Below, one piece after another: positions 8,731 to 58,143 of a stretch of 64,000 bases of DNA; the first letter of the stretch is position 1, and each line of letters opens with the position of its first letter. Under the pieces are notes generated by a model. The model worked only from the letters and a program-made list of their open reading frames with translations. It had not been told where the DNA came from and did not search any database. The stretch is taken from positions 992,001 to 1,056,000 of the forward strand of contig CP142729.1 in the NCBI GenBank assembly GCA_036630325.1, read 5' to 3'. The DNA is from Vairimorpha necatrix (lineage: Eukaryota). Position numbers and translations under genes: made by a program.

Positions 8731-8781
8731 AGATTATATAGTGTCAAAATTGATCCGTTTTTTAATGGTAAAAATTCTAAA

Positions 8782-12780: not shown

Positions 12781-12826
12781 ATATAATGTCCAAATTGATC
12801 CGTTTTTTAATGGTAAAAATTCTAAA

Positions 12827-13593: not shown

Positions 13594-13634
13594 CAAATAT
13601 TAATACGAACAAAGATCAAATTTTAAGTCTACAT

Positions 13635-17770: not shown

Positions 17771-17803
17771 TGAACTTTCTAAAAAATATCTTTTTTTTAG
17801 CCC

Positions 17804-28430: not shown

Positions 28431-28462
28431 ACCCGTTCTCAGAACGGGTGTGCATACGCTAG
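28431..28462 (+). other. Helitron 3' terminal hairpin + CTAG
   Basis: 9-bp palindrome at 28431-28449 and CTAG at 28459-28462. Confidence 0.9.
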
Positions 28463-29754
28463 TTTCACTATATAAGAATCCCAAGGACACACAATCTTGA
28501 TAATCCTGATATCCAAAAATCTACCCTTTTTATACTTATTGCACCCTTTTAAATTTTCACTCTTTGTAACTTGCACTCTCCGTCCTTCGACGAACTTTTC
28601 TCTACATATTTTTTAAATCGCTTGCTATAATCATTTTCTGGTCATTTCTCGATATTACATTGCCCGTATTATCTTTAACTGCCATAAATAGTGTGCATCT
28701 TAGACCTTCATGGTAACTATTATTATATATCTTATGTGCCTTCATAACTCTTATTTCATAGCTATTTTTGGGATTCATTTTCAAAACAGATTTTCTTAAC
28801 GTACCTATGACGCTTCCAACTCTTACATTTCTTCTATGTGATTCAATACTGATCTTCTTGTAGGTCATATCCAACTTTCTACATAACTCTCTAAATTCCT
28901 CATTTGCAAATTCTCTTCCCTTGTCAGATATGATTTCTTCTGGTCTTTTAACATTTCTACACAAATATTCTATAAATCCAGTTATCGAGCTAGCACGCTT
29001 ATCTTCCAACACTCAACCCCATGCGACTCTCGTATAGTAATCAATAACACTAAAACGAATTTCCTCAAATCTCTATAATCGTTTAAATCCATTTCCACCT
29101 TTTCTAGGTTCGTACTTGTTGCAATAAAATCTCATCCCCCTGATTTTTTCGATTGTATTTTTGGCACTCATCACATTTTTTTATCATAATCTTTATATCT
29201 TCTTTTTTAACCGTTCAATAATAGTTAAATTTTATAGCATAATAAACACTTCCTAGTTTTCTGTAGGTCTGTTCTTCGTGGGACCTCTTCATGAACTCTA
29301 ACCTATCACCTAATGCGGGCATTCCGCCCTACGACCAGAATCAAAATTCCAGTACTCTTTGTCCTCGACCTTCTCAACGTGCTTTAACCATTTCCCCGCT
29401 ATCTGTTTCTCTGCTCTTCGTCTTATCATTTCTCTCTTCGGTTCATTTTCCTCATGGATTCTGCTCAATGCATCGCAACAACCATCTGGTCGGGTTGCCT
29501 ATATTCAATCTCAAAATCGAACACTTGAATCATCTCTTATTACTGTTATTTCCATTATTATTAAAACATGGCTTTCTCCTTATTTCTGCGAAAGCCTTAT
29601 GATCAGTTTTAACTTTAAACCTTCTTCCTCTTAGTTCATACTCAAATTTCATTTTGCCCCAAAATACAGCATATATCTCTTTCTCGCTAATTTCGTATCT
29701 AGATATAGTCGGAGTAAATTTTCTTGATGCCCATTGTACAGGCACTCATTTTTC

Positions 29755-30845
29755 GGTGCTTCTTTATTATGCGATCAGATTTTTTTTAAAAAAAATTCTG
29801 ACCCCCTAAAAATGGAAAATAGTGACTTTAAAATTTCTGATCGCATATCAAAGAAAAGCACGAAAATCAAAATAAAGGCAATACAAAGGCTTTCTATGGT
29901 TGTGACGACTGTTTAAACATATTACTTGAGTTAGAAGTCTCGAAAGAGCAAAAGACGTGCTTTAAATGCAATGAGATTTTAAATGTTGTATTATATAAGG
30001 AGAGAGAGGTTAAAAGAGTGGTTACAGGTGTTCTAATAATAATTGCAGTGCTAAAATATCAGTTAACAAAGGAAGCAAGTTACCTTTATATAATTTTTGT
30101 GAATTAATATTTTTAATTTTGTGTAAGAGTAGTTATTTTACTTTAGAGGCAAAACTAGGAGTTTCTTCATCAACAGTTTCCGATGCAAAAAAAAAAGAAT
30201 TAGAGAAATTTTAAAAACAAAATTTCTAAGAGGCTTATTATTGGTGGATCAGGAAAAATTGTCCAAGTTGATGAGTCTGTAATTTGTAGAAGAGGTAAAA
30301 TAAGAAATCCAACAAGTTGTGATGATATAATCCCTGATACTGTTTGAATACTAGGTATAGTAGAAGCATCTAATCCTACGAAGTTTTACATTACAGTGGT
30401 GGATAATAGGAAAGTCGAGTGTTTAACAGCTGCTCTAGAAGGTAAAATAGGCGTTGGTTCGATTTTTACATAGTGATGGTCATCCGAGTTATCCAAGTGT
30501 AGCACGAAATCTTTGTCTTGAACATAAGGTAGTAAACCACTCTATCGGGTTTAAATCTACAGATGGTACTCATACCAATAACATTAAGAATGTATGGTCG
30601 CAGCTAAAATCTGAAATGACCAAAGAACATGGAGTTAAGAGTAATGAAATTGATTCATGGCTCAATGAATTTATATTTAGGAAAAGTTTTGTAGAGGGGA
30701 CAATTTAGAAGAGTTTTACGACTGTTATGTTGATTTATTATATAATTTACATAATTAAATCAAATTTATAGTATTTTTTAACGTTTTTTCATATTTTCCT
30801 TTACAAGGGGGGTCTTGGTGTCCGATCGCATACCAAAGAAGCACC
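29755..30845 (+). mobile_element. Merlin-like transposon nested in gypsy B
   Basis: TIR GGTGCTTCTTT..TATGCGATC.GA, perfect 8-bp TSD CATTTTTC, and motifs VQVDES, HSDGHPSY, VVNHS, HTNNI. Confidence 0.92.
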
Positions 30846-32949
30846 CATTTTTCTTTTTAATTTTTCTGCATTTATACAGCTCCCATACCAATATTACTCG
30901 CATTCGTTCTTAATAAAATTCTTTCTCGTAATTAACAATCCTCAATTTTCCTTTTTCTCGAGCACTTTTTTTATATTCTCAAATTCAATATCCAACTCCT
31001 CAGTCCAATGTTAACTTTTGTTTTTCCCTCTTCGGCAATCTGTCATGTGAATCGTTTCTTCTATAAATCCTGTGAATTAACACTTAATCCTAAAAAATCT
31101 TCTTACGTCTATTACATTTTACGGCTTCGAGAACTCTAATGCCTCATTCTTTTTCATCTCAAATGGCATCATATCCTTTCCATTCAATGTTAATCCAATA
31201 ATTTAACTTCTGATTGACAATGCTATATCTTCTTCGAGTTTAATCTCATGTTATTCTCTTCTAACAGCGTCATTGTCTCTAAGAACAATCTGTCGTGTTC
31301 TTCTCTAGTCTTGGCGTGTATCACAATATCATCCATATAAACTTCTATACCTCTTCCCAAATATTTTTCAAAAATCTTATTTTTAATCTTTTGCATGATC
31401 TGTGGCTAATTTTCAAACCCCATGATCATGCTGTTCCACTCGTATACTTTCTTATTAACTCAAACGCGGTCTTGTGCTTATAAGCTTCTTCTATCTCAAC
31501 ACCCATAAAGGCTTCTTTAAGGTCAATAACGCTCATAATCTTATGACTTGCGTAAACCTAATAATATCCCTGATGTTGCATAGCTCATATGATCCTTTTC
31601 TACTAAATCGTCTAGTGCAATAAGATTACTGACTAAACGTATGCTACCATTCGGCTTAATTATAGCCTTTATCGGATTCCTCCATTCAGAAGTTGATCTT
31701 TTAATCACATTTCTTTCTTCTAAATCCTCTATGTGTTAAAATAGATCATTTTATGCGCTTGAGGAATCATCTGTCCCTTCTGCACGACTTTTTTATGCTT
31801 CGGTCTTTATTTAATATTTCTCTATTCTACGATATTTAATTCTTTCCTTATTTTTCATCAATAACGGTTTTAAATTTCTTATTAACATCTTCTAAAGTTG
31901 ACCCTTTAAATGCTGTCGTCTCGTAATTTCTCTTCTTGATCTCTTCTACTTTTCTAGTTTGTTCCCATAGTGATCCAACCTATCCTCTATCTGTTTCTTT
32001 CGTTTTTTACGGCCCAAGTATTCCTAATATCTTTCATCGCTGCTGCTACTGTCCTCTTGATATATCTTCTCACATTCTTGTTTATTCCTCTCCTCTCTGT
32101 ATCTATTATAACATCTATTACTTTATTGTACTACACTTTCACAATAAAAACATCTCATAGACCTCACATGCCGTCTCCTACGCACTATCTACTCTGTATA
32201 TATACCTTTTGTCAAATTCTTTGTGACCTCTTCAATCATTCTAAATCTCCCTTCTCCATCTTCATAATCTTTTACAATCTCTTTTAGTCGTATTCATATC
32301 ATGTCATGATGATCCTCTAAACTTATATTCATAACCATAAAAATTTTCAGCTCTAAACTTCCCTTTTCAAAAATAATTTTCTTCAAATCTTCATCGCTTT
32401 TACACTCAATAACTCAGATTTCTTTAACATGTTCTCATAATCCTGCAGAATTTTTATGGCCTCTTGGCCACAGCCAACACTTGTTAACTCACGATTTAGT
32501 ATCGAACCCATGTATTTATTTTCCATAATTGGGGGTTCGGAAATGTTAGAATATATAACATTATATTCATTAGATCTCATGGAGGTCAATTCTGCGAAAT
32601 TTCACCTCTAATTTTTCATACTTATTTGTTGTGATGTGCAATATTTAGATTATGTTTTCCAATAGCTGTTTAAGTATTTTTGTGTCGTTCAAAATTTAAT
32701 TGTCTATACACATAAAATGTATTTAGTTCTTTATAGTTTAATGTTTTCGTAGCATACAAACAAAATTTATTTGTTATTATATTGCTAATTTAATTATACT
32801 TTAACATCGCTTGCGAATAAACTTCACGTAATATTCTATAACTAATTAGGAAGTTAGATTAGCCTCTAGACCTTTTCTTGTTATCGCGCGATATATTTAT
32901 TTCGTTATTATATAAATATATATGTTACAATAAAGGTTATTATGTTTTT

Positions 32950-37490: not shown

Positions 37491-38302
37491 AAATAAAAAT
37501 GAATTTAAATACTAAATTATCATTAAAAAAAATCAGATTAAACAAAATTGTTAATTAAATAATTACTCTATATGTTAAAATAACAAATTTTTTGAATTTA
37601 ATTAATTTATATTTAAATTTTTAAATTGTTTATATTAACAATATGTTTGTTTTTCTGATCGTTGTTTAATGATTTATCATATAAATATATTAATTTTGTT
37701 TGTTTGTAAAAAAAAATTAACAATCCAAACTTCGTAGCAATTCTTCAAATTATGATAGTACTTTTAAAAAAAAAGCATTACATTATTTAACTTCCGAGGT
37801 AATATGTATAGCTCGAGAAATTTAACTATATAATCGTAACTAATATATAGAAACATATTTTTAACGACAAAATACATACAAAAACAAACTATATGTTTCG
37901 TACTTTTTATATTGTTTTTAAAAAGCTTTAACATGTCAAATGTTATAAAAAAGGTGCAAGCCAGTAAACAATAAATTCATCATAATTTTATTGGGATTTC
38001 TCTAAACTCCAAGACTTAAATATTATCACCTTGTTTAATATGATGTTTTAACGAATTTATAAACTTGAATAAGGTTTTTTGTATCAAAGTCATCGGTTTT
38101 ATGTTATTTTTTATCAGGTTCAAATAACAACAATGACAAGTATAACTGTTCAATTTAATGAAAAAATACACAGCAACGCATTAACAGACAACAAAAATTA
38201 CAATATCAATATGAAAAGTCCAATATATGTAGCAAATTAAAAAACATTATACATTATTTAAATATGTAATAATTCTTTGATTTAATATTCATGCATTTAT
38301 AT

Positions 38303-42135: not shown

Positions 42136-43321
42136 GTCTCTACAGACAAAATAACAAAAGTTCAATTAAAGATGAAAATATAGTTAGAAATTTGACAGCT
42201 CACTACAAGAAAAGAAGAAATCTAGGAAAAGTTCTTTAAAAGAGAATGAAAACAAGAGTCTAATAAAAGAGACTAAGCGCCCTAAGAAAGTGTCTACTCT
42301 GTCTTCTGAGTAAAATGTAGAGAAGAAGTCTAAGAATGATTCTAATAATTCCTTACATGATAAAGTTTTGTCTCTAAGTTCCAGTATAAATGATTTCTAT
42401 AAATTAGATCTGAAGTCGAATATTCTTAAAGTCTTGGATATTAAGCAGGAAAATGATTCTATAAAAATGCCTTCATTCAGTACACAGATAGAAGTGTCAA
42501 GGATTTATCATATGAGATCATCAAGAGAAAGGTGCCTTATAAATTATTTGAGTATTATGAGAATTTATACGATCCTATGCGAAGACCAATATCATATAAA
42601 TATCCTTATAGTGCAACCACTATACAGTTAGCTAAAGTGAGAGATTTCTGCCGAGAACGCTTATTTAATCCTGATAAGGTTGGATGTAAATTTACAAAAT
42701 TTCGAAGAATTGAAGCGGTTAGTAAGAAAGGATATTGGGCCAGGTTAAAGGGGAATAAACGTTGGAGCCACATTAAAAATCTAAAGTTCTAGGAGAGACA
42801 GACTGTGGCATTATGCACATGTTAAGAAAATCATTTTTTCTGATAAAAACTTTTAGTAGAAAAAATGAATTTTCTAGAATTTTATTTTTTCTAAATGTTT
42901 TTTTTAAAAAAGCAAGAGCTACAAGAAGAAAAGTCATCAGCAAAGCAATGACAGGTCACAAACAAACAAAAACCAATACAGGCCAAAAGAGCCTTTTGTC
43001 GAAACCCAGAGGAGCTACCTCTGAGCAAATACAATTCTATGATATTAATAATTTTATTATTGTTGTGGCTCGTTGGGCCATGAGTACGGGGCATTAAGTC
43101 TTCCCTAGCTTGGTTGCTCTTCCTTGACATTGGGTTACAAGGGTAATGGTAATTAGGATGGTTGTTGTTAAAGTGTGTTGTCATCCTTCGAAAAGTGGGG
43201 GTGAGAAATAAATTTAAATAAATATTCGATTTTTGGAATAGACCGGTCGAATGGTCTATTTTCCAAAAAGGGAAAATTGATAAAATAAAAATAAATAATT
43301 TGTGGTATTTATAATACCACA
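42136..43321 (+). mobile_element. 3' remnant of another gypsy element (integrase tail, PPT, putative ~518-bp LTR)
   Basis: SKKGYWARLKGNKRWSHIKNLKF* parallels the integrase end at 43533. AGGAGAGA PPT, then TGTGGCATT (42804)...AATACCACA (43321). Confidence 0.55.
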
Positions 43322-43532
43322 CCTTTAATAAACTTGTGGTATCCACCACTGAGGAAAGTATTTAGAAGATTTTTATTATTGATTTCATTCTTTCTTTCCA
43401 TCATTTCGTACCCCTCTCCGGATAAAATATTTAAATAAGTGTTGGAGGGAAAACTGAACGAATTTGGAGGGAAAGATTTTAAAAATATATTTTATGATAT
43501 TTGGTATATCATAATCTACCTCTCCTTAGATT

Positions 43533-44654
43533 TCAAAGTTTAGTATCACCTAGGTGAATCCACTCGTAGACTCCCTTAACTTTGACCCATCGGTTATTCC
43601 TGCTGACAAATTCTACTAGGTGTGGACCCGTAAATGCCTTCTCCCATTTTTTCCCATTAAAGTTCTTTACATACACCAGATCACCTATTTTAACTGCATT
43701 AATCTTTTTCTTAGACAAACTCTTTTTCTTTCTCCTATGTATCTTCTTAAAATGAGATCTGCCTTCAGGATCAAATTGATTAGTCCCTGCAACTAATTCT
43801 TCTGGTGCGCAACCTATTGATCTTCGATAGTTTTGGTTTAATCGGATTTCTATATTTTCCATTATATTTTCTAGGGGTTCCCTTTTATATAGCCTGATTA
43901 TTTCCGAAATAGTACTGTTTGTCCTCTCACAGATACCATTGCTCTGGGGATGATACTTCGGTACATGTACTAATTTTATGTTGTGTCTATAAGAGAAGTC
44001 TTTCACTAAGTTACTAGTGTACTGTGTTCCATTATCTGTAATTATTGTTTTGGGGTATGGGAATTCATTGATCCATTGTTCGAAACACTCTACCACCTTT
44101 TTATCTGTAATTTCTTTTAGTTTATACACCTTTGTATATCTAGTGTGGACATCAATAATCGTCATAATATACCATTTTTTATTCTTTATTTTTGTAGGAC
44201 CGTATATATCCGAACAAATTTTTTCAAAGGCTGTACTTGCGGTAATTTCCATTTTATTTTCAAATCTATGGTAGCTAAATTTTTTATTAAATTTACAATC
44301 CTGACAACTGTTTACTACGCTTCTGATAGTTTCCTTCATCTTATGGATGTAGTAGTAATTTTTTAAATTATTGTATAATACGAACATCCCCGCATGCTTA
44401 CTTTTTAAATGCATATTTTTAATGAACAATTCACTTTCACATGGCTTTATGTAAAGTTTACCGTTCTTCTTGGTTTCTGTAACATGAGGTATCTCTTTTA
44501 TTACTTTCTTTGCTTGATTTTCTGTATTCACTGCCACTTGTAATACTTCGTCTGGTGGTATTCGTGATAAATGGTCAGCAATTACATTTTTCTTTCCTTC
44601 GATGCCTTTTAATGTAAAGTTATATTCGTTAAGCATTAATTTCCATCTTATCAT
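43533..44654 (-). CDS. pol: Gypsy integrase (pol 3' part, separated by a 1-nt frameshift)
   Basis: HLKSKHAG..CQDC, SDIYGP, TDNGTQY and YHPQSNGICER. Confidence 0.9.
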   Translation of the reverse strand: MIRWKLMLNEYNFTLKGIEGKKNVIADHLSRIPPDEVLQVAVNTENQAKKVIKEIPHVTETKKNGKLYIKPCESELFIKNMHLKSKHAGMFVLYNNLKNYYYIHKMKETIRSVVNSCQDCKFNKKFSYHRFENKMEITASTAFEKICSDIYGPTKIKNKKWYIMTIIDVHTRYTKVYKLKEITDKKVVECFEQWINEFPYPKTIITDNGTQYTSNLVKDFSYRHNIKLVHVPKYHPQSNGICERTNSTISEIIRLYKREPLENIMENIEIRLNQNYRRSIGCAPEELVAGTNQFDPEGRSHFKKIHRRKKKSLSKKKINAVKIGDLVYVKNFNGKKWEKAFTGPHLVEFVSRNNRWVKVKGVYEWIHLGDTKL

Positions 44655-46354
44655 TCTGCTGTTATCATTTTAGTGTCGAACAAGCAATTTCTATTATCAC
44701 ACATTACTTTAACTTGGTATCCCATGATAATTCCTTTAAAAAATCTTAAGCTTTGTAAGATTGCGAACATTTCCTTTTCGACAATCGTATAGTTTACTTC
44801 AGTATTAGTAAATTTCTTGCTATAATGTCCTATGCATCCATGCTTTTGAAATAACACTGCACCCATGGCTTTGTCAGATGCGTCGGTCTGTAAACAGAAC
44901 TCTTCGTCATATTTCGGAGACACTAATTTTCCGTTTTCTTTAATTTCATTAATTAACTCCTTTATCTTTTGCTTTTCTTGCTCGTTTAATTCAATCTTTT
45001 GTTCAACTCCTTTTAATTTATCTGTTAACGTCATAACTTTAATACTGAAATTTGGCACAAATTCTCGATACCAATTTAATACTCCTAAAATTTTTTGCAA
45101 TTCACGACGTTTTGATATATTTAGTTTTGCTAATAATTTGTCAATACTTCTTAGATTTGGTCTAATTTCCTTTTCATTTATAATCAGTCCTAACATCTCC
45201 ACTTCTTTAACTGCAAATATGCTTTTTTCAAAGTTGATTTTTATTTCATAACTAGACAATCTATCTAGTACTTGGTTTAAAATCTCATTGTGTTCTTCTT
45301 TGGTTAGAGTGTATATTAGAATGTCGTCGATATATACTACTACGTTATGTATTTCGGCTAGAATTTTGTTTATGGTCCTTTGAAATAATTTGGGACCGGA
45401 TTTAATGCCAAATGGGATTCTTGTATACTTGTATACATTTCCTAAAATTTTAAAACTTGTAAGATTCATATTATTTTCTTCTATGGGTACTTGATTGAAT
45501 CCGTTTTTAAGATCAATTTTTGTAAAATACTTTGCTCCTTTGACCTCATTAATCATATCTTTAATTTTTGGTAATAAATCTATCTCGTCAACTATATTTT
45601 TATTCAATTCTCTATAATCTACCACTAACCGGATTTCGTGATTTTTCTTAGCAATTACAAAGGCCGGACTGCTGTACTTACTATCACTGTATTTAATGAT
45701 TTTTTCTCTCAAAAGTCTTTGTATCTCTCGTTTAGTTGCATCTAGGTATTTATGTGGAATCGTGTATTTCTTATTTGTTAGCCTTAAATCCTCTTTTGTT
45801 GTAGTTTCAAAACCAACTCTCTTAACTTTCATCTCTTTATATAACTCGTTGTTTTTTATGTATTGAAGTATTTTTTCTCTATTTTGAATGCTGACATTTT
45901 CCTCACTTATGGAAAAGCATTTCTGCAGTAACAAATCTTTATTTTCCTCATATGGTTGAGGTGATCCATCAATCATATTAATAATCTTTTGATTATGATT
46001 AATTGTTAGGGTTGCAAAGTTTAGAATTATTTGATTCTCACATAAAAATTCTACCCCTAAAATTATATCTGCTGATAATTCTTTTATAACGTGTAATCTT
46101 GTAAACTGTTTAATACTAAGGCTATTTATCGAAATATATTTTTCTATAATATCTTCTGACCTTTCCTGATAGCCGTTTCCGAAAACAAAACTCACTGTTC
46201 TATTCTTTTTGGCTATAAGTCCTAACTTTTCTACCTTCTCTGCACTTATCAAATTTTTAGTGCATCCTGTATCTAAAATGGCGATTACAGTGTGACCATT
46301 AATTGAAACTGGAAGTTTTACTGTTAAATATTCAGACTTTTCTTTTAAAACCAC
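44651..46354 (-). CDS. pol: Gypsy protease-RT-RNase H
   Basis: ILDTG, RLVVDYR, VYIDDIL and QTDASD. Confidence 0.92.
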   Translation of the reverse strand: MVLKEKSEYLTVKLPVSINGHTVIAILDTGCTKNLISAEKVEKLGLIAKKNRTVSFVFGNGYQERSEDIIEKYISINSLSIKQFTRLHVIKELSADIILGVEFLCENQIILNFATLTINHNQKIINMIDGSPQPYEENKDLLLQKCFSISEENVSIQNREKILQYIKNNELYKEMKVKRVGFETTTKEDLRLTNKKYTIPHKYLDATKREIQRLLREKIIKYSDSKYSSPAFVIAKKNHEIRLVVDYRELNKNIVDEIDLLPKIKDMINEVKGAKYFTKIDLKNGFNQVPIEENNMNLTSFKILGNVYKYTRIPFGIKSGPKLFQRTINKILAEIHNVVVYIDDILIYTLTKEEHNEILNQVLDRLSSYEIKINFEKSIFAVKEVEMLGLIINEKEIRPNLRSIDKLLAKLNISKRRELQKILGVLNWYREFVPNFSIKVMTLTDKLKGVEQKIELNEQEKQKIKELINEIKENGKLVSPKYDEEFCLQTDASDKAMGAVLFQKHGCIGHYSKKFTNTEVNYTIVEKEMFAILQSLRFFKGIIMGYQVKVMCDNRNCLFDTKMITAE

Positions 46355-46369
46355 CTTACAGTGAGAAAA

Positions 46370-47238
46370 CTAAAGATCTTTATTAGTTTTTAATTCATCC
46401 GTTTTGATCTTACTATTTTTATTCTCAATTCTTTTATTTTTACTGTAACACTCACTGGTGTTATGAGTTCTTGATTTGTGTAAGCTACACCATCGATTCA
46501 TCTCATTTCTCAGTCTTGGTTCATTGACCTCGGCTTGAGAATTCTTAGTTAGCTCTAAGTCATTCCGAATTCTGACTACTAATCTTTCTCCAGGTTTATC
46601 AATAAGTATATAATGTCTTTAACACTCTTGGTATTAGATTTCATGACATAATCTTTGGTAGCGTCAGATAAAGCGTTCAAACAAATTTCATTAAACCTAC
46701 GCTCATACTCACTCTTGGTATATTTTTCTAAAAAGGATGCCACTTCAAGTTTGGCATCGATATCGGCAAACATATCCTCTATTAAATCATAATTTTCTTG
46801 TTTAATATCTAGCAATCTAACTCCTAAATTTGAGAATAAGTGATGCGGATATGAAATATTTAGTATTTCCTCCTTAAATTTTAAATAATTTTTAGAATTA
46901 TCTTTTCCTTTCCATTCTTCACTTTCGATCAAACTTTGTAAAACTAGAAGAGTCTCTTCCTCGTCCCATTCCAATTTATTTTTTAGTTCTTCGAATTTTC
47001 GAAACCATGCTAACATATTGGTTTTCTCGATATTAGTTATAATCTCTAATTGCTTAATTATAGGCTGCTTTAGGCCTTTGACATTGATCTCAAAGCTGAT
47101 CATGTTCCCTTGGTTTTTAATTTCTATCCTTTTATTAAGTTTAGGATACATCTCTGTTAAATTTAACTTGTGGTATCCACCACTGAGGAAAGTATTTAGA
47201 AGATTTTTATTATTGATTTCATTCTTTCTTTCCATCAT
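46370..47238 (-). CDS. gag: Gag (one frameshift near 46585; CSLHKSRTHNTSEC knuckle; ends at a TAG in frame with pol)
   Basis: ORF 46579..47238 plus a shifted continuation to the TAG at 46372-46370. Confidence 0.75.
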
Positions 47239-47878
47239 TTCGTATCCCTCTCCGGATAAAATATTTAAATAAATGTTGGAGGGAAAACTGAACGAATTTA
47301 AAGGGAAAGATTTTAAAAATATATTTTATGATATTTGGTATATCACAAAACAATTATTTAGAAATGTATTTTAAACTGGGTAAAGTCTTCAGTAATAACG
47401 TCAGCTATTACGAAAAAAAAATACTTTTGATATTAATGAGTCATAAACAATTTTATATGTTCAATAATTTCGTGTAATTTTTTTTCTAAAACTATTACTA
47501 AATGAGCACATTATGCGATAATAAAAATCTAAACGATCTTAAGAATTTATGGGGTTTCATGGACTAAAAAAAGACTATTTAAAAAATATATTCGTTTTGA
47601 ATGAAGAATTAAAAAATCGTAGTAAAAAACCAAAGAAAAAAAAATCAGAAACGTATAAAGAGATTGTGATTTAAAGCATTGCCAATTGCTAATGTGTGAA
47701 ATAATTGTCCCTATTAAAAAATTCGTCTCATCCCTTTAAAAAAGTTATTAAATAGACATTTAAGTCTAATATCAGCATTAGTGTAAAAAAAAGGGGTCAA
47801 AATTTTAAATAAATTGTCCCTTTTCTAAAAAAAAGAAAGAATGAGAAAACTTCAAAAAAAAAACTAACTTGTATTAAA

Positions 47879-50800
47879 AGTTATATTCTATAATATGATT
47901 GACCCCAATTTATGATAAATAAAGACATGGCGAATACAAGAAACAAAAAGTCGGCGCGTGAGGACTGTGGTCAGGTGATCAGAACGATACGGAATGAGTT
48001 TAGTATTATTATGTATGGATTGAGATTGAGAGAACAGTAAGGGATTGAATTGAAAGATATTTATAGTTTGGGTTCAGAGGATTTGAGAAATTTTATGGTA
48101 GAATATGTGAGGAAGGAGGACGGAATTGAGAAAATGGAGAAAATTTTAGAAGAGATGTATAGAGTAGAGGAAGAGCAGAGAGGAGAGAAAGAGATGTTAT
48201 AGGAGATGACGGAGAGAATCGTCAGAGAGGTAAGAGGAGAGATTGAACAGCAGAGGCGTTAGGCTGTGAGAAGAAGAGTTATAAGATTTTATGAGTGTCA
48301 GAGAATGGGACATAAGAGTGATAGATGTTATTACAAATATAAAGGAAAATAAAATAAAAAGGAGTGCAATGCAGTCTACGAAGATGATAGTAGTGTTAGT
48401 GAGCGGAGTGGATATAGGACGACAGCAGCCGCGGAGAGGCAAAAGAAGCCTACAAGTAGAGAACTTCCAAAAAGAAAAAATGAAGTTGAGGCAGCTGGAA
48501 GCGTTTTAGTACTTGAAGAACTGAAGTAAAAATATAGGAAAATGTTTAGTTCGGGAGACGAGGTTATAGAATATTGTACGATTGAAAATGTAAGATAAAA
48601 ACACAAGAGGGCGCTAAAGTAGTGAAGAAAGGACAGTGCATACCTCAAGCATTAATGGAGGATACTGAAAATTTTATTAAAGGACTGGAAATGAGGAAGG
48701 TAATAAGAAGATCGAATTCGGAATGGAGAAATCCAATAAGAGCGTTACAGAAAGCCAGATGGCGGAATAAGGCTAGTGAGTAATCTGATGGCCTTGAATG
48801 ATTTGGTTGAAAAGGATCCTTATTAGTTAATTAATATAAGAAACATAATTAGGAATACACAGGGTTCAAAATATTTTACGATAATTGACTTTGAGGAAGG
48901 ATTTTATAATATTGAGATCGACGAGGCAGATAAACATAAAACTGCATTTGAATTTAACAGAAGGGTTTTTGAATGGAATAGTATGGTTATGGGATACAAG
49001 AACTCCCCGCAGATTTTACAAAGAATAATGTATAAATTGTTTGAGAGACACTTGGGGAAAGGAATAGAAGTGTATATGGATGATATTGTTATACATGCAG
49101 CGACGAGAGAGGAGCACGATATATTGTTAGGAGAAGCACTTAGGAAGTTGGAAGATAATAAGATGATGATTAATATTAATAAGGTACAGTTATGCTTGAA
49201 GAAGGTAAAGCTATTGGGGGTTACACTGAATGGTTTAGAAATAACACCGTCTGAAAATAAACAAAACGAAACGTTAGAATTCCCAAAGCATAAAACGTGT
49301 CAGAAGTAAGGAGATTCTTAGGATTAACAGGATGGTTTAGAAGCTTTATAAAAAATTATGCGGATTTAACGGTACATTTGACCGACAGTTTGAAGGGTAA
49401 AAACGAATGGAATGAACACAAAATATGAAAGATGAATTTGTTAAGTTGAAAAGAAAGGTTAAGACTTTGGGAAAGTTGAAGATAATAAATTATGAAAAGG
49501 AGTTTTTATTTAGAACAGATGCGTCAAACATAGGAATCGGCGCGATAGTAATGCAAAAGAATGCCGAAGAGGAGTGGGTCCGGTACAGTGGGCTTCGAAA
49601 AAGTTTACTCCCACGGAATCAAGATACGGAATAAGCGAGAAAAAGATGTATGCGGTCTACTGGGGAATCAAAAAGTTCGAATATGAAATAAGAGGTCACA
49701 AATAAAAAGTTGAAACAGACCATAAAGATTTGATAGAAAACAGGAGAAAGCCACAATTCGAAAATAATAGGATTATAGGCGGATAGAGAAAGATTCAAGA
49801 GTTCGATGTTACAATTGAGTACATGAAGCCAGATATAATGGTAGTGGCCGATGCGTTAAGTAGAGCGCCTGTTGAAGAGACTGAGAAAGAGGAAATGATC
49901 AAGAAAGGAACAGTGAAATAAATCGAAGGAAAAGAGAAGAAACATACAGTATATGAAGATGGAAAGGAATACTGGGTCTTTGATAGTGGTATAAGAGCAA
50001 AGATACCAAAGGAGGAAAATAGGGCAAAGTTAATAATGAAATATCACGAAAATGGAGGTCATCGTAGTGTTGAAAGTGTTTATTATGCGATGAAGAAGCT
50101 TTACTATTGGTTAGAGATTAAGTCAGAGATTTATAATGAGTTATTGAAGTGTGAAAGATATCAAATTTATAATAGGAAGATGTCGGGCGGATGTGATTTT
50201 ATTAGTACCAGTAGATATTTAGAGAAAGTAGATTTGATTTGATTGAATTTCGCGACGAATGTAGGTACGTTTTGATTGGTGTTGATTACCATACTAGACT
50301 AATTTTGGGAATGAGCATGAAGGAAAAAAAGGCTCAGAATGTTGCTTGGTTTATAGAAAGTTTATGTAGGAACGGAAACCGACCAGAGGAAATAATAACC
50401 GATAATTTCAAGGAATTTGTTAACGAGGATCTTAGGATATTATGTAGAAGATTAGATAATGCATGCAGACAGATAAGCATAGAAAGCCACCATAGTAATG
50501 GACGTGTAGAGAGAGTAAAGGAACATTGAGAGAAGCTATTTTGAAAATGAAAGGCGATGATTTTGACGATAAATTTATGAGAGCGATTGATATGTACAAT
50601 AATAGTTACCACAGTGGGATAGATTGTACACCGAAAGAGGCGGTTTTGGATATTAGTGGAAAAGATATGATAGAAAATGGTCCTGAAGGAAGATACAGTA
50701 AGAAGTTTGTTAAAAAGAAGAGAGAAAAGTTTTACAGGAATCAGCAAGTACGAGTAGCGAAAAAAGAAAATTTGAAGGGATGTACTGAATATGAAAAAGG

Positions 50801-50996
50801 ACGATTTCTGGAGAGGGAAAAATTTACGCGATTTGTGGAGGAGATTCTTATATTGTACGATTGGAAACAGGACGGCTGGTGAAGAAAAGACATTATGATT
50901 TAAAAGGGGGTTTAAGTAAGTATGAGACTAACCGTCTTGGAGGGGGATGTTATATTCTGTAATATGATTGACCCCAATTTATGATAAATAAAGACA
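47879..50996 (+). mobile_element. Gypsy-type element D, 3118 bp, 49-bp LTRs
   Basis: LTRs 47879-47927 and 50948-50996, perfect TSD TTAAA, PPT GGAGGGGGA, and motifs VYMDD, TDASNIG, HENGGHR, TDNFKEF, SNGRVER. Confidence 0.93.
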
Positions 50997-51804
50997 TTAA
51001 ATAAAAAATGTAATTAATAAAATTTAAATATATATAAATTAAAAATATAATATTAATAATACTTTAAAAGTTTCCTGGCTCTCATTTTTTTAATCATATA
51101 TAGAGTTAATAAATTTCGGCAAGTTCGTATGTCTACACACATTGGATAGAGAGGCCTCAAGGGGTCTTAATATTTTTTGATGATGTTTATATGAACATCT
51201 GTAACTCTGTTTATATGTTCGACTATGATTTACAGTTATAAGGTCCGCATAATAATGTCTTAAAGTATATATGCCTTCCATATAACCGAATGGATGACAT
51301 ATAGAGATTTACCCATTTAAGCACGATGGAAAATAATGTATCTTTGTTTCTTTTATTATTTATTACGAGGACTATCTCCTTTGCCTTGGTTTTTTTACAA
51401 TTCCGAAACACCAAACCCCCTTAACAAGCCTCACCCTACGATATTTAATTTTGACGATTTTACTCTCATCTTTCTCTACTATAAAAAATTTCTCTTTTAT
51501 CCGTTTTATTATATATATACGCTTCTCATGAATTTTTAATTTATATAACTTCTATGGAAAACTTAAGTTTTGTATGTTACTTTCCGATAATCTTAAATAT
51601 TAATTATTTTTATTTCTAAAATCCAGAAATTTACTATTTATAACAAAAGTAAATATTCTGCTTAATTGTATGCAAATACAGTATGATTCCAAATTGAAAA
51701 TCTATGTTTTACATTTTGCAGCCTTACACCTCGAGGGCGGTTTCATTTGATACTCTTCTTTACCAACCTCATTTTATACTTTTCTGGTAGTATTTTTTGT
51801 TTGC

Positions 51805-52029: not shown

Positions 52030-54000
52030 AAAATCTACTAAAAATTTATTGATACGATCATGATTTGATCCAAGGCCTTTTCTATAATCGTATCTTAAGT
52101 ATAAACTATAATTTTCAATCTTATTTGTATCTCCACCTTCGTTGTTTTCAATATTTCCTATGATTTACTATTTTATGCTTTAATCCAAAATTATCCACGG
52201 CTTTAGTGTATGATGTATTTCCATAGTAACAACAATAGTTCACATAAGTATGCGTTTTTAAACTCTACTTTCAAAGTTTCGTGTTTTCCGTTATGAATTA
52301 ATGTAACATAAATTTCGTTCAATCACCTCTTCGACTCCTCCAAGTATCAATTGTATTTTAGTAGTATCGTCTTCTATGAAGACAGATTGACAATTACCAA
52401 GCCATTTAATATGATAGTTTCAGCGACTTTAACCCGTATATTTTCTTCCTATATTTTTTATTTTCAAGAAGTCTTGCTTAGAATATCCAAAAATTATTTT
52501 TTTTTAAATATATGTTGACTCGGCTATTTTGAAGATATAAACTAGCTTTATAGTTTAAGTAAGAAAATACCCGCAGATAAACCTTTCAGAATCTTCTAAA
52601 ATTCGATGGTTAATCTATAATCAAGTGTTTTTCTTAATTATTATTTTTTTTGAATTTTTCAATACATATGTTCTTTTTCTCATAAATTGAGAAAATAATG
52701 GCGCTACTTCATTTTCTTGCCCCCCCTAAAAAAAACATACATAAAAAAATACAAAATCGTGTTATTTTTCAAATCTAAACATTTTTTTTTTGAGGGGGGC
52801 AAGAAAATGAAGTTAAGGTATTTTTTTTGTCGATTTGAGAATTTTTAAATGCCTCCTTCAGATTCCTCATTAAGGGGTTAAAAAATTTTAATTTTTTAAT
52901 CCTTAATAAGAAATTTAAAGGAAGCTATTCGGGAGCTAAATATCTGCGAAGATGCGTGCTTTAGGCACAATGAAGCAGTAATTGATTTTTTTTAGATAAT
53001 AGTCTTCTAAAAAGATCGATTGCTTGCAGACATTGTTCGACATCAGAACGAACTGTTCTTATGAACATTAATGGATGTTCCGGCTAAATTGACGGCAAAG
53101 CTTATCGTTGTGTTAATAAAAAGTGTAGTTCGAAGAGCTCACTTAAAAATGGTACGATTTTAAAGGGATAAGCGTTCAATTTCACAGAATTCTTAGAGCA
53201 TTCTATGTCTGGGTATTAAATTATACTACTTACCAAGCAATATATCTTTGCAAAATATGTGAAAATTCATATATTAAAATCAAGAATACAGTGATGGAAG
53301 TCATTGCTTCTAAAAGCGATGATAGCTACCAAATATGAGGAACTTCTGTTTGTGTACAATTTGATGAAACCGCCATATGCAACGGGGAAATTGTATCCAA
53401 TCCTCCTTCAACTTTGGATTCCATGTCTGGAATTCAATGGATTATAGGCGGCATAGTAGAAGGTAACTGTAGAGAATTTGTTCTTGAATTGCTACCGAAT
53501 CGACAATCTGGTACTATTGAAGAGTTTTTTAGACACAGAGTAAAACGTGGCTCTATTATAATTTCTGATGGATACCCTTTATGCCCCCAGCCTCTAAAAA
53601 ATTTTGGGAGTGAACATTACAAAGTAAATCAATCGCTTGGGTTTATAAATGCGGAAGGAGACCACACAAATAATATAGAAAATTTGTGGTCCCATTTGAA
53701 GAATGAATATAGATCGAGAATGGGGCTTAAAAGGCATAGGATAAATTTATTTCTAAAAGAATTCGCTTGGAAAAAAAAAATATCAATTATTTTAATAATG
53801 ATGATCATAGGTGTGCTTATATAAAAATTTTAAAACTTTGTAGGTTGGAATAAATAAAATTTCTTCTAAATAATTTTTTTTCTAGGGGGGGGGGCAAGAA
53901 AATGAAGTAGCGCCAAAATAATTATAGCACGGACATGTTACCTAAACATGATTTTAAATACATAAGCTGTTGGGCATTATTTCATCTAAATTTATTCGAA
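52030..54000 (-). mobile_element. Highly degenerate Merlin interrupted by another Merlin (ends uncertain)
   Basis: Minus-strand VKVAET, SYTKAVDNFGLKHKIVNH and DTNKIEN at 52110-52440. Confidence 0.5.
52700..53914 (+). mobile_element. Merlin transposon (1215 bp)
   Basis: TIR GGCGCTACTTCATTTTCTTGCCCCCCC, perfect 8-bp TSD AAAATAAT, and motifs QFDET, WIIGGIVE, ISDGYP, HTNNIENLW. Confidence 0.93.
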
Positions 54001-54076: not shown

Positions 54077-54839
54077 GGCAACCTTAGCCCAGTGGTCGAT
54101 GGCGATGCTTGAATTTAGCAATGGCTTGATTTGATACTTAGGGGCACCAAAACGATTCTCTTTCTATGATGCAATGGAAAAACTCAGACGATGAAAATGC
54201 CAACGATGATCATAAAGTTGATTCATGTGACTTAGTGTGTCCAGCCACAAAGGGATTAGCATCTAGTGTATAAACGCACCTGAAGACCTAAAACAGAAAC
54301 CCACCACATGTGTTGACTTAATGATACATAAAAGTATCTAATGGGTACGGCATAGTTAAGGGCTATGGTTTGTGCACTCTAGAGTGGGATCCTAGAGCTA
54401 ACTAAGAGACTAGACGAAGTAAGGCATAGAAGGTCTAGTAGTTTCCTATACTAATATTCTGAAGCACGGTGGCCGTAACTAGTGTACGTTTCGAATCAAA
54501 GCAGTCCAATAAAAATGCAGAATTAATGATGTTGCGGTGTAAGGAGTCGTATATGCGATATAGATTATGTAGAGATCATTGAGATAATACAATGATGTCT
54601 CTTCTGAAGCTATTACACTCATGGCCGTTCAGTATATCTGCTGCGAAATCGTCCTTGACGAGATTTGATGCATATATTTAAAATGTTCTCTTTGTCTAAA
54701 ATCCATGTATACGGCTTAACAATTTGCACTGATGCCTTTTATGACAAATTATAGTGAGTAAGAATCTTACTAAATCTGTTGAATAAGGACCACACCCAAA
54801 TACTTAAACCCCTATCCTTACTTGCAAAGTCAAAAAAAA
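54077..54839 (+). mobile_element. tRNA-headed SINE-like repeat, copy E
   Basis: TAGCCCAGTGG A box...GGGGCACCA, with a unique upstream flank, body and A-tail. Confidence 0.65.
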
Positions 54840-55545
54840 TTAACAAATATTAATACGAACAAAGATTAAATTTTAAGTCTACATAAAAACTGAATTGATC
54901 TATACTTATATTAATAAAAATGTAACGTGCTTGAAACATTGGTCCAAGATATAAAAAAAACGCCTATTCGTAACTATACTCGTAACTCTGGATATTTGAG
55001 GTCAAAAAAAAAGAATTAGTTTAAATTTCAACAGATTAATTAGTTTAATTTTTTAATCTTAAAAATACCCAATCGACTTTTTAAACCCTCATAATAAAAG
55101 GATTTTATTAAAAATTTACATTACTGAAAATGAGTTTTATGTTTATTTGTTTATATGTTTTAAAGAGTTGTACTTTGACGGGAAAAGTTTAAAATATGAA
55201 TGTTTGATTTTTACAAAAAGAAATACAATATGAATAGATGTAAATTGAGGGATGAATTTTTGATAAAATTCAAAAAATATGTGTTAAACAATTTCAAATC
55301 GATTTTAAAATACTTGATTTTTTTATATCGATAAATGTTCCCAAAATCAATAGGGTTTTCTCATGTATCTTTCAATTGGATAGACTAGCGTCTTGTTGAA
55401 TATATACAAAAAATGCGTAGAATTCTACTTTGTCTCTATTATATGATTTAATCGACATCTTTAAGTGATTTTTGAACTAAAGAGTTATATTATTTATCTG
55501 TCAAACACATTCATGGATTTTTTAAAAAACATTTTATTTTAACCC

Positions 55546-57030
55546 CCGCTTTTCGATTGGAAAAGGACAAAATAAAATTATTGCTATAAATTTAAAACAT
55601 AGACTATCAACCATAGTATTGGTTAATAAGTACCAAATATTCATAAAGACTCCTTTAGGACCGGCCTTCTATTTTGAAGGAAGTCAATTACTCACAAATG
55701 GAAGTGGCACTCTAAAAAAAGTAAGAAGGTTCGAAGCCATAAAAATAAGATATATCTTAACATACGGGAGTCCACTAAATGTTGTAATGAAGCATTATTG
55801 GTCAATCCCAAGAACATAAATCCTCTCTACGTTCTTGGGAAATGCTTCTTGCAACAGGACAATTTAGAATTAACAAAAGAGATAGTAGATAAAATTAGAT
55901 CCGTGGACCCGAAACAAATATGTGCCACTATTTTAGAAGGGCATATTTTGTAAAAGACGGGTCAGGACGTAGAAGCCTACGATAATTTTTTATCATATTT
56001 GAATACATCGTCGTGTGATGTATTCCTCTTCTACGGTCTAGATTAATTTACGATCTTTTAAAAAACTTTTTTTTGTCCTGGAGTGGTTTACCCTGGTCCT
56101 ATCTGCTGACGTGAAACTTCCGAAAGTACTCGAAATTATGTACAGAATAGGGATCTGTTACAAAAGAGGGGAAATTCACAGATGCGCTTTGAGTTTTCAA
56201 ATTTATAGAATCGTTCGTAAAGTTTGATTTATTTAACGACGATGTCAACCTTCAGATTGCGCATATTATGAGATCGCCGAGAACACAGAAATGTGTTCCA
56301 AGATCTCGTAAAAAATAAATGTTACCAGCAATCAGAATATTCTTGCTACTAGATCGCACAAGTGGCACAATATTAAAGAAAAAATCCCGAAGCAATATAA
56401 TTTATTTTTGAGCTATTATTGTTATTTTTCTCTAATTTGCTTCAACATCCGCGCACTCTATCTGGCCACACCACCCTCTAGCTTATCTACTATGTTTTTA
56501 GTTCGAGATCCTCCTTCGCCGAGTCCCTGCCGGTGCTTAAAGCAGATGCTCTTTAGTGTCTTATTTATAAATCTCATTTGGATGCAAGCTTCGGTACTAT
56601 TTGATAGGCCGATGACATGTATATAATTGCTATGGTATTTTGTCATAATTGCGGCCCATGTTGTGACGTATGGTAAAAAACTGACGCAATAAAAAATATT
56701 TACAAATGTAATAACGAGCCAGTTTCCATCTAACTCTCCTTTAAGATTGTTTTGAAGAATTTAAGTATTGCAATTGTGATCTCTAAAACGAAGTTTTTGA
56801 TCCACATATACTTTACATTGTAGTAAGAGTTATGGCTGAAGAAGTTTAGTATGAAGAAGCGCGTAATATTTATTTGCTCTGTTTTGACCTAGATCCCGCT
56901 TTGTATTTATCTTACAATTTGACAGATGGTCTGAAGAATTTTGAAATAAACAGCTATGAACTAGCTCAAAAACTGTTTTAACTGGACCTTATTAAAAAGA
57001 TAACTGTAAAGAGACTCTTAATAAAAAAAT
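55546..57030 (+). pseudogene. SSN6: SSN6/CYC8-like TPR pseudogene, copy 4
   Basis: Colinear with copies 1-3. Confidence 0.65.
56398..56675 (-). mobile_element. LINE 3' end fragment
   Basis: LPYVTTWAAIMTKYHSNY...EACIQ...KTLKSICF. Confidence 0.7.
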
Positions 57031-57084
57031 GTAGATTATATAATTTCAAAAAAAAAATCGTTTTTTAATGGTAATACTTCTAAA

Positions 57085-57846
57085 GGTGCGCTTAGGCCAG
57101 AGGTATAATGTGATGCTTCAATTGAGCAATAGCTGCTCGAATGAAAGAAGCACCAAAATTGTTTCGATTTTCTATGATGCAGTTGAAACAACTCAGACAA
57201 TGAAAATGTTTACGATAATCATTAAGTTGATTCAATGAAAATCATGTGTGTCTAACCACAAAGGGAATTAGCATATAGAGTAGAACCGCAGTTCAAGGCC
57301 AGAAACATATCACTTTCGTGGCGACCAAATGATACATAAAAATATCTGTTGGGTACGGCCTACTTGGAGCCTATGGCTGGTACACTCTAGGGTGCAATTC
57401 AAGAGCTAACTAAGATGTTGGTCGACGAGGAAATAAAGGGTCTCGTGGATCATATTCCGCAAGATTTTGTAACACCTTGGCTGAAACTAGTGGAAGCCGG
57501 TGGTCGATGTAGCACAATAAAAAATGTTGGGCTTTTGATGTGGCGAATCAAGGAGCCGTGTGTGCATATAGATAAAGTAGACCTTTAGGCTAATATGATG
57601 ATGTCTTTTTTCGGGGAATGGTATTAAAACAATGTCGATTAAGTATATCTGTTATGAGTTCACTGTTGACGCGATTTAGGGCATAGATGGTGTAATATTT
57701 TTTGAGATAAAGTTTACTGTACATGCCGGACCTTGCCTCTTGGCAAGTAATATGGTGTAAGTTTTTGTGAAAAAGACTTCAAAGTATCAGTTGGTCCAAT
57801 ATAAGATAACAAAATAGCTTGGCCTGGTCCTTAAGTTAGTTATCCT
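57085..57846 (+). mobile_element. tRNA-headed SINE-like repeat, copy F (divergent 3' half, cut by a Merlin end)
   Basis: Head like copies B and C. The body diverges after ~57680. Confidence 0.55.
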
Positions 57847-58143
57847 GGCGCTACATAAAAATTCGTACCCCCCCCTAAAAAAATTACATTGACCAATTAA
57901 ATTTATATAAAAAAAATATTTTTAACCCTTAAAATTATATTTAAAACAATATTTTTAAAATAGTAATTTACAAAAGTTAAAATATTTAAAAAAACAGTTT
58001 AAACATATTATTAAGTTCAAAAATTTAATTACTTTAACATAGAAAAAATATCAATTATTTTTACGCAGGCCAATTTGACTGTAAATGGTTTGAATATTCT
58101 ATATTTTCTTTTTTCCATTTAAACTCATCTAACCAACATTTAA
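57847..58143 (-). mobile_element. 3' terminal fragment of a Merlin
   Basis: GGCGCTAC...CCCCCCCCTAAAA resembles the 52700 TIR. Minus-strand WLDEFKWK is a transposase tail. Confidence 0.6.

Follow-up and report, generated by a model that had tools for sequence, protein, structure and literature searches.

A dead Ty3/gypsy-type insertion in Vairimorpha necatrix, probably from a microsporidian lineage that lost its aspartic protease and continued to transpose

The element at positions 47879-50996 of the window (the whole stretch of 64,000 nucleotides that was analysed, to which all positions refer) raises the question of whether a lineage of LTR retrotransposons can transpose without a protease of its own. 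To our knowledge, every textbook scheme of an LTR retrotransposon or retrovirus includes an aspartic protease that cuts Gag-Pol, and in yeast and retroviral models protease mutants fail to replicate. The element, here called D, is probably a dead full-length insertion of a microsporidian Ty3/gypsy-type lineage in which the protease was lost once, early, while transposition continued. The lineage combines a protease-less architecture, in which no retropepsin is detectable, with conserved catalytic residues in reverse transcriptase (RT), RNase H and integrase (IN), and the loss occupies a single position in the tree.

Structure and integration of element D

Element D is a Ty3/gypsy-type LTR retrotransposon of 3118 bp, full-length yet dead. 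Its single decayed ORF is laid out as mini-Gag with a CCHC knuckle, a 58-codon linker, RT, RNase H and integrase, the protease being absent. The features are as follows.

47874..47878, + strand: 5' target-site duplication (TSD) TTAAA, identical to 50997-51001
47879..47927, + strand: 5' LTR, 49 nt, AG...CA, a direct repeat with a TATAAT-like stretch, CCCCAATT and AATAAA inside
47927..50962, + strand: single polyprotein ORF, now decayed, for mini-Gag, linker, RT, RNase H and IN; it aligns colinearly with the intact relative P0001 over residues 1-1005
47927..48286, + strand: all-helical part of mini-Gag, from models of the homologous region in intact relatives
47928..47940, + strand: PBS-like TGGCGAATACAAG, immediately 3' of the 5' LTR and within the coding sequence, recognised by its position and TGG start
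48287..48328, + strand: CCHC zinc-knuckle remnant FYECQRMGHKSDRC, first Cys changed to Phe; none of the CCHC residues varies among 19 relatives
48329..48502, + strand: linker of 58 codons at the protease's usual place, acidic/Ser-rich and then basic, with no D[TS]G motif
48503..49228, + strand: pre-RT segment and reverse transcriptase with two frame changes within (Pfam RVT_1, frame path)
49416..49798, + strand: RNase H domain (Pfam RT_RNaseH_2 and RT_RNaseH, frames 3 and 2)
50012..50454, + strand: integrase, H2C2 zinc domain and DDE core (Pfam Integrase_H2C2 3.9e-08, rve 8.5e-06)
50939..50947, + strand: polypurine tract GGAGGGGGA, a purine run within the coding sequence, adjoining the 3' LTR
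50948..50996, + strand: 3' LTR, 49 nt, TG...CA, a direct repeat
50997..51001, + strand: 3' target-site duplication TTAAA, matching the 5' copy

The two LTRs are identical at 47/49 positions in the TG..CA register and at 48/49 in a register shifted by one base, the 5' copy beginning with AG where TG is expected. The A of the start ATG is the final nucleotide of the 5' LTR, and the natural stop, TAA, falls within the 3' LTR. The original prediction had placed the knuckle at 48287-48328, as is found here, and had allowed about 70 codons between it and the pre-RT segment; this segment starts at 48503 (VLVLEELK...), which leaves a gap of 58 codons, and a count of about 70 reaches approximately to IEYCTIE. 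The RVT_1 match (5.7e-29) covers frame-2 residues 274-433, that is, 48749-49228.

Along the frame path defined against the relative, the ORF of D is interrupted by 10 premature stops in frame and changes frame 8 times; the raw stop count is 20, of which 8 fall in an out-of-frame stretch and 2 at a frame change. Hypermutation was rejected as the origin of these stops, since the P0001 residues opposite the 10 stops are E (four times), V (twice), K, N, F and Q, with no W. At three of the stops of D (48350, 48824 and 49291), sense codons are found in contigs from two runs that are 90-99% alike.

D inserted as one unit of 3118 bp and duplicated 5 bp of its target, as had been proposed from its perfect TSD. 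TTAAA is present on both sides. In run X2, another sample, one contig passes from 47878 to 51022 across 20 letters and has a single TTAAA; its shorter side is 32 letters long, it was placed at 90% likeness, and one of the flanks that it reaches is present in many copies in that run. Since 3143-20 = 3123 = 3118+5, this contig lacks exactly D and one TSD copy; the empty site may be paralogous rather than allelic. Furthermore, contigs of run X1 diverge at 50997/50998 into unrelated DNA and thus exit the end of D at other insertion sites. The target duplication, the empty site and the near-identical copies in other samples are signs of recent activity in the clade.

A second member of the family, element B, lies in the same window:

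about 28460..32560, - strand: element B, dead and truncated at its 3' end, a diverged member of the protease-less family (tblastn with D and P0001, sequence read)
32560-32511, - strand: 5' LTR of B, its sole LTR
32152-32111, - strand: decayed knuckle remnant of B (sequence read)
~29790-30850, + strand: foreign insert in B of ~1 kb, an ISXO2/IS1595-type transposase remnant (DDE_Tnp_IS1595 7.9e-07)

The layout of B is that of D and the two linkers are homologous, in agreement with the original prediction, and no protease was found in B by Pfam. A net length of about 3.1 kb had been assigned to both elements; this holds for D, whereas B is incomplete, having only the 5' LTR, being cut off near 28460 and containing the ~1-kb insert. 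The 5' LTRs of D and B are identical at 36/50 positions, and TGG follows directly 3' of the 5' LTR in both; no tRNA gene was found within the 64-kb window. The neighbouring elements A and C contain DSG/DTG motifs, as described earlier, and so does E, whose open 572-aa PR-RT ORF matches Pfam Asp_protease_2 (5.5e-10).

Relatives of D and the position of the loss

Of 318 candidates in a search with the RT region of D, 38 proteins reached E<=1e-10. Of these, 34 are 54-76% identical to the RT of D, many being 985-1043 aa long and located on contigs of 3.0-3.8 kb, and a protease Pfam domain is precomputed for none of the 34. As had been predicted, intact copies with a single ORF of about 1000 aa are indeed present among these database relatives: protease-less ORFs of this size come from the named sources Nosema granulosis, Vairimorpha necatrix and Enteropsectra breve and, more distantly, Nematocida, and all share the layout of D. 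The closest named relatives of D are those of N. granulosis and V. necatrix. From the sizes of their contigs and from the dead copies B and D, we infer that the intact elements have LTRs and TSDs and lack a second ORF. Because intact relatives of ~1000 aa have the same layout, the absence of the protease from D is not a private deletion. A metagenome scan yielded three loci (L001-L003), all lacking an LTR pair and with ORFs that are broken or rearranged; they were left out of the analysis.

In 19 intact or near-intact relatives, Pfam detects RVT_1, RT_RNaseH, Integrase_H2C2 and rve without exception, and zf-CCHC in 13. Their alignment shows invariant CCHC residues, RT D329 and YxDD, RNase H D541/E583/D608, and IN HHCC with D797/D836/E872. 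The region that follows the knuckle behaves differently: between the knuckle and the pre-RT segment no column is invariant in the 19 relatives up to K229/C230. Both motifs, knuckle and pre-RT, are found in 28 of 38 relatives, 55-134 aa apart, and the spacer itself measures 27-106 aa, the shortest (27 aa) occurring in an otherwise intact member. It is variable, rich in K, R, E and S, and often includes an NLS-like basic motif; K[KR]x[KR], the only enriched motif, occurs in 20/28 linkers against 10.2 expected. Judged from sequence, this patch fits a nuclear-import signal at least as well as a cleavage site.

The mini-Gag region of intact relatives is modelled as helices at 18-39, 48-54, 57-66 and 73-121, with a mean pLDDT of 83.6. 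Foldseek gave best E values of 1.1 (PDB) and 0.33 (BFVD), VIA-align wide returned generic helical matches up to Z 6.5 with the Arc C-lobe at rank 27 (Z 5.4), and scores in the Atlas feature search were 0.81 or less; these matches are no more than leads, and no capsid fold was recognised by these searches.

In the unrooted RT-RNase H tree, one branch unites the 28 protease-less rows (UFBoot 90, SH-aLRT 67), a support that is moderate once P0047 is included and rises to 99/95 for the clade without it. One change is enough in 90% of 200 bootstrap trees. The sister group consists of the protease-bearing P0097, P0053 and P0059, with a joint support of 99/99. The RT of D is sister to that of P0001 (99/92; 76% identity over 177 columns) within a 27-row clade supported at 100/97. 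This arrangement, with all protease-less rows on one side of a branch beside protease-bearing relatives, fits one ancient loss.

Protease search and processing of the polyprotein

Pfam at E<=1 finds RVT_1, RT_RNaseH, RT_RNaseH_2, Integrase_H2C2 and rve in the three forward frames of D and no peptidase family; the three reverse frames give 0 families. The 19 relatives match 38 Pfam families. Among the matches listed there are no retropepsin families and the sole peptidase is Peptidase_A17 (2/19, E 0.047); 13 of the 38 families, each in at most one member, fall outside the matches listed. In P0047, which is not one of the 19, the Peptidase_A17 match covers residues 506-615, in the RT-RNase H region. 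A D[TS]G motif occurs within the linker of only 2/28 relatives. At E<=0.01, Pfam misses the proteases of P0131 and P0153, in both of which a DTG is visible, so a negative HMM result alone says little about such proteases. Profiles of the linker, of the N-terminal part and of the full-length protein, compared by hhalign with a retropepsin profile built from 14 sequences, reached probabilities of 0.0-0.2%; the positive control P0059, a weak true protease, reached 97.6%. In the AlphaFold2 model of P0001, residues 143-200, equivalent to the linker, have pLDDT <50 and no beta-barrel precedes the RT; the linker is thus modelled as disordered.

As originally predicted, the linker of D has no D[TS]G motif, and no retropepsin was detected by Pfam in D, by hhalign with the family profiles or in the P0001 model. 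The wider proposal of that prediction, a lineage transposing without its own protease, is supported as well, as no protease at the linker position appears in the 19 aligned relatives (Pfam, among the matches listed) and neither hhalign nor the P0001 model reveals a protease fold in the linker.

Two readings would make the missing protease only apparent. B and D could be independent deletion derivatives or non-autonomous copies of a protease-bearing family: both are dead, and the LTRs of D are near-identical despite its decayed ORF, which could mean copying in trans. This reading is refuted by the intact relatives of ~1000 aa that share the layout, by the 19-relative alignment, by the colinearity of D with P0001 over residues 1-1005 and by the tree, where the protease-less state occupies one branch, and its probability is practically negligible. 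It is only marginally easier to believe in a hidden protease, either diverged beyond recognition or belonging to another catalytic class, within the mini-Gag or the linker. Pfam does overlook some true retropepsins of related elements, and the mini-Gag has no clear fold match; nevertheless, an otherwise intact member has a free linker of no more than 27 aa, nothing is conserved in the linker, the N-terminal part is all-helical with high model confidence, and hhalign separates these regions sharply from even a weak true protease.

Given a protease-less architecture, the polyprotein may remain uncleaved as Gag-RT-RH-IN, with no element-encoded cleavage, a mechanism which we advance tentatively, at slightly below an even chance. 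Whatever the mechanism, an element of this lineage measures ~3.1 kb, with two LTRs of ~49 nt and one ORF of ~1000 codons filling the internal region; the start codon spans the junction of LTR and PBS-like site, this site and the polypurine tract are both coding, and the stop codon, in D, is provided by the 3' LTR. The protein consists of a helical Gag of ~125 aa with a terminal CCHC knuckle, a disordered spacer, RT, RNase H and a DDE integrase; when uncleaved, it could bind its own RNA via the knuckle, with the spacer serving as a flexible tether. Alternatively, a host protease could cut the exposed spacer, and possibly the RT-IN junction too, in place of the lost retropepsin. A disordered, variable, K/R-rich spacer is an easy target for cellular proteases, but no candidate enzyme or conserved site was found and the sole enriched motif suits nuclear import at least equally, which leaves this option rather unlikely. 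Cleavage in the spacer by the retropepsin of co-resident gypsy families such as E, the family thereby parasitising protease-bearing elements, is likewise unlikely, and perhaps slightly more so. Protease-bearing gypsy elements are indeed present in the window (A, C and E), and the spacer is exposed and disordered in the model. However, the clade is old, extending from Nematocida to Nosema/Vairimorpha, so borrowing would require a compatible helper in every host throughout; moreover, retropepsins usually differ between families in the sites that they prefer, and the spacer contains no conserved cleavage-like motif save the basic NLS-like patch.

The uncleaved polyprotein can be extended to a broader picture, held with less confidence than the mechanism itself: the elements could form a phylum-wide, ancient, recently active autonomous clade that replicates with an uncleaved Gag-RT-RNase H-integrase, without protease or capsid maturation. 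If the uncleaved reading is true, LTR retroelements would be able to do without the retropepsin, commonly regarded as essential to them, and an element of 3.1 kb whose LTRs measure 49 nt would be near the minimal LTR retrotransposon. A clade that kept RT, RNase H and integrase intact for long without a protease offers a natural system for asking what proteolytic maturation is for, and bears on the smallest possible autonomous LTR element. Annotation pipelines that demand a protease domain for a "complete" LTR element would score the family as defective. No paper stating the loss of the protease in a microsporidian or other LTR retrotransposon lineage was found in a literature search outside which lay Xu et al. 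2006, said to be the original description of the Nosema bombycis elements and possibly already showing protease-less members.

Comparison with known systems

With Ty3 of Saccharomyces cerevisiae and the Metaviridae, D shares LTRs, a 5-bp TSD, a PBS-like TGG and a polypurine tract; likewise, its Gag has a CCHC knuckle and is followed by RT, RNase H and a DDE integrase in that order. In the fold search the model matched Ty3 reverse transcriptase best (4ol8_B, E 1.9e-35, 28% identity). Unlike Ty3, the family has no retropepsin, one ORF spanning the whole internal region where Ty3 has gag plus pol, 49-nt LTRs, and a Gag of ~125 helical residues with one knuckle. Of the Ty3/gypsy hallmarks, the LTRs, TSD, domain order, Ty3-type RT and CCHC knuckle are therefore present in D, and the retropepsin between Gag and RT is missing. 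A retropepsin at this place belongs to the canonical Ty3/gypsy architecture and is not a classification criterion; as it is missing, D is placed in the superfamily, on its RT phylogeny and the order of its domains, as a variant rather than a canonical member.

The microsporidian Ty3/gypsy elements on record (Nbr elements of Nosema bombycis; three microsporidia-specific groups, PMC4202319) come from the same host phylum and are described there with a single polyprotein ORF. "Nearly all" N. bombycis elements are stated to encode Gag, protease, RT, RNase H and integrase (PMC2474625). The word protease is absent from the main text of Parisot et al. 2014 (PMC4202319), and its supplement file 2 gives consensus DNA without domain annotation. 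The sister elements P0053, P0059 and P0097 are compact and single-ORF like the family, on contigs of 3.5-3.7 kb (P0053, P0097), but have retained the retropepsin that lies between Gag and RT (Pfam gag-asp_proteas: P0053 2e-4, P0097 1.4e-08).

Assignment to the non-autonomous LTR derivatives (LARD, TRIM, TR-GAG) was rejected, since family members code for RT, RNase H and IN, all three with an invariant set of catalytic residues; so was membership in DIRS/Ngaro, given the rve DDE core, the H2C2 domain and the plain LTR pair. Tf1 of Schizosaccharomyces pombe and Ty5 are single-ORF elements that, like the family described here, make Gag and Pol as one polyprotein at 1:1; unlike it, they encode and need their own protease. 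Naturally protease-less systems are DIRS/Ngaro and the hepadnaviral P protein (TP-spacer-RT-RNase H), whose replication polyprotein is uncleaved and has a disordered spacer before the RT. These serve as a working analogy only, as they have a tyrosine recombinase or no integrase and other termini, whereas the present family has a DDE integrase (rve in 19/19) and true LTRs.

Structure, neighbourhood and mobility of element D

The D region contains a direct repeat of 49 nt with copies spaced 3069 bases apart, which delimits the Ty3/gypsy-type element as follows:

47874-47878 and 50997-51001: target-site duplication TTAAA, flanking both LTRs
47879-47927, + strand: 5′ LTR in TG...CA register, 47/49 identical to the 3′ LTR
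50948-50996, + strand: 3′ LTR in TG...CA register, 47/49 identical to the 5′ LTR
47927-50962, + strand: decayed single reading frame, occupying the entire inter-LTR region
about 48329-48502, + strand: linker of 58 codons, from the knuckle remnant to the conserved pre-RT segment

The start ATG takes its A from the last base of the 5′ LTR (47927), a placement shared by the diverged relative B, and the natural TAA (50960-50962) coincides with bases 13-15 of the 3′ LTR. The PBS-like TGG... and the polypurine tract GGAGGGGGA of D both lie within coding sequence; this layout of D and B, with the ORF spanning the whole internal region, is an extreme compaction for an LTR element. The three forward frames match the Pfam families RVT_1 (5.7e-29), RT_RNaseH, RT_RNaseH_2, Integrase_H2C2 and rve, with no peptidase family at E ≤ 1, and the reverse frames give no Pfam match. 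The knuckle remnant lies at 48287-48328, exactly where the original prediction placed it, with its first Cys changed to Phe. The protease-less gap described after it is likewise present; it measures 58 codons up to the conserved pre-RT segment, the ~70 of the original count reaching further downstream.

Because the frame path matched to intact relatives crosses 10 premature stops and 8 frame changes, D is a dead copy. The LTRs, too short for dating the insertion, differ at 2 of 49 positions, as against those lesions in the ORF. D may have been copied while already defective.

With the frames of D as queries, tblastn reveals one more member of the family in the window, the minus-strand element B:

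32560-32511, − strand: B 5′ LTR, 50 nt, 36/50 identical to the D LTR
32152-32111, − strand: B knuckle remnant
29790-30850, strand opposite to B: insert of ~1 kb, an ISXO2/IS1595-type transposase remnant

The B linker is homologous to that of D. B is not the complete unit originally supposed, as it stops near 28460 and its 3′ LTR is absent. The blocks TGTTATAT, CCCCAATT, AAATAAA and ACA are kept between the B and D LTRs. The D and B LTRs are only 49-50 nt long, and a promoter, R region and poly(A) signal would have to fit into 49 nt.

The window holds further elements:

43300-47400, − strand: E, a protease-bearing gypsy element, nearly intact, with repeated ends and three open frames (248, 572 and 378 aa), directly adjoining D
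23922-28250, + strand: Helitron protein, 1443 aa uninterrupted (Helitron_like_N 4.4e-62, PIF1 1.4e-55), which looks intact
10357-10926 and 53339-53821: ISXO2/IS1595-type (Merlin-like) DDE transposase remnants, as in the B insert
6000-13700, 17400-18900 and 54400-64000: large dispersed repeats, spaced ~3, 4 and 7 kb, 60-100% identical
58189-58530: FLYWCH zinc-finger ORF

Contigs 90-99% like D are present in two public sequencing runs, X1 and X2. One X2 contig bridges 47878 to 51022, and the 20 letters between match the bases after the 3′ target-site duplication; the difference (3143-20 = 3123) equals the 3118-bp element plus one TTAAA, and the contig looks like an empty site. Its shorter side is only 32 letters, matched at 90% likeness, and it may represent a paralogous site, since the left flank of D (47674-47947) is high-copy in X2, with a summed word depth of 35,000-40,000, far exceeding the rest. 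D lies within or adjoins a very high-copy repeat. At 50997/50998 the X1 contigs run out of the 3′ LTR into unrelated sequence, marking other insertion sites. The earlier claim that D moved in this form is supported by the TTAAA duplication and by the X2 bridge, short by 3118 + 5 bases.

Among the 40 of 207 differences listed, contigs carry sense codons at at least three of the ten stops (48350, 48824, 49291) and one additional base at or near at least two frame changes. Consequently, the defects are private to D, and its close relatives have probably been active recently.

Intact relatives and tests for a hidden protease

Querying a 5.8-billion-protein collection with the RT region of D returned 318 candidates, 38 of them within the cut-off of E ≤ 1e-10. 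Of these, 34 share 54-76% identity with D, and none of the 34 carries a precomputed protease domain; RVP_2 is present in a 1492-aa protein from the same search, 39% identical to D. Many of them have lengths of 985-1043 aa and come from contigs of 3.0-3.8 kb. Intact copies of ~1000 aa, proposed earlier as worth seeking, do exist; Nosema granulosis, Vairimorpha necatrix and Enteropsectra breve are the organisms named by the sources. Since D is colinear with its closest relative, P0001 (1017 aa), over residues 1-1005, its layout is, judged by this comparison, that of a functional family and not a deletion. The 911-aa member P0019 bears the source label 'MAG: Clostridium sp.', and its 3024-nt contig is probably a mis-binned microsporidian one.

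Across 19 aligned members, intact or nearly so, neither the CCHC residues nor the catalytic residues of the RT, RNase H and integrase domains vary; beyond the knuckle, the first column without variation is K229/C230 of the pre-RT segment. Both motifs can be located in 28 of the 38 proteins, where 55-134 aa separate the knuckle from the pre-RT motif, with D[TS]G in only two of these 28 stretches. Subtraction of the conserved pre-RT part leaves a free linker of 27-106 aa, abundant in K, E, R, N and S. The Pfam matches listed for the 19 members at E ≤ 1 (a further 13 families, none in more than one member, lie outside these) include no aspartic-protease family other than Peptidase_A17, in 2/19 at E 0.047; in P0047, a relative not among the 19, the Peptidase_A17 match falls in the RT-RNase H region.

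Pfam is weak on the proteases of D's relatives, having overlooked those of P0131 and P0153 despite a visible DTG. For this reason, a profile-profile test was built with a retropepsin profile of 14 sequences from related elements. The family linker, N-terminal and full-length profiles gave retropepsin probabilities of 0.0-0.2%, and the weak protease of P0059, used as a control, gave 97.6%. The AlphaFold2 model from the family alignment (mean pLDDT 73; residues 143-200 below 50) has no beta-barrel ahead of the RT and only helices before the knuckle, and its best fold match is the Ty3 RT. No protease was thus detected in family members by the alignment, the Pfam matches listed, the profile-profile test or the model, which confirms the original observation and supports its interpretation as a protease-less lineage.

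Origin of the layout and fate of the polyprotein

Wider relatives were gathered by an exhaustive HMMER search. Seven with full N-termini, at 35-46% identity, are protease-less too (P0040, P0043, P0047, P0054, P0055 from Nematocida sp., P0100 and P0105); others, at 32-37%, retain the protease. In an unrooted IQ-TREE analysis of 55 rows and 456 RT-RNase H columns, with four N-terminally cut rows unlabelled, all 28 protease-less rows share one side of one branch (90/67; 99/95 without P0047), and a single change suffices in 90% of 200 bootstrap trees. Their sister group is the protease-bearing P0097, P0053 and P0059 (joint support 99/99). D adjoins P0001 (99/92), and a quick tree agrees. Because the protease is, to our knowledge, universally present in the superfamily, the change is read as a loss, and the tree fits one that occurred once and is old and widespread.

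The favoured reading is that the polyprotein would stay uncleaved and bind its own RNA in cis. The model of the mini-Gag (pLDDT 83.6) contains one helix of 49 residues alongside three short ones, plus the knuckle, and has no clear match in fold searches. K[KR]x[KR] occurs in 20/28 linkers, versus 10.2 expected from shuffles, and would fit nuclear import; this NLS-like motif usually stands immediately ahead of the pre-RT segment. Cleavage by a host protease is possible, as is cleavage by the protease of co-resident elements: A, C and E, the neighbouring gypsy-type elements, carry DSG/DTG motifs, as first noticed, and E, with Asp_protease_2 at 5.5e-10 and an open PR-RT frame of 572 aa, is a possible donor.

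Comparison with described microsporidian elements

No mention of a protease-less lineage turned up in the literature searched, its scope excluding the 2006 N. bombycis paper. Parisot et al. 2014 (PMC4202319) describe gypsy groups that are specific to microsporidia and have a single polyprotein; the word protease is absent from their main text. Gill et al. 2008 (PMC2474625) attribute five domains, protease among them, to 'nearly all' N. bombycis elements, a wording which hints that exceptions had already been observed in 2006.
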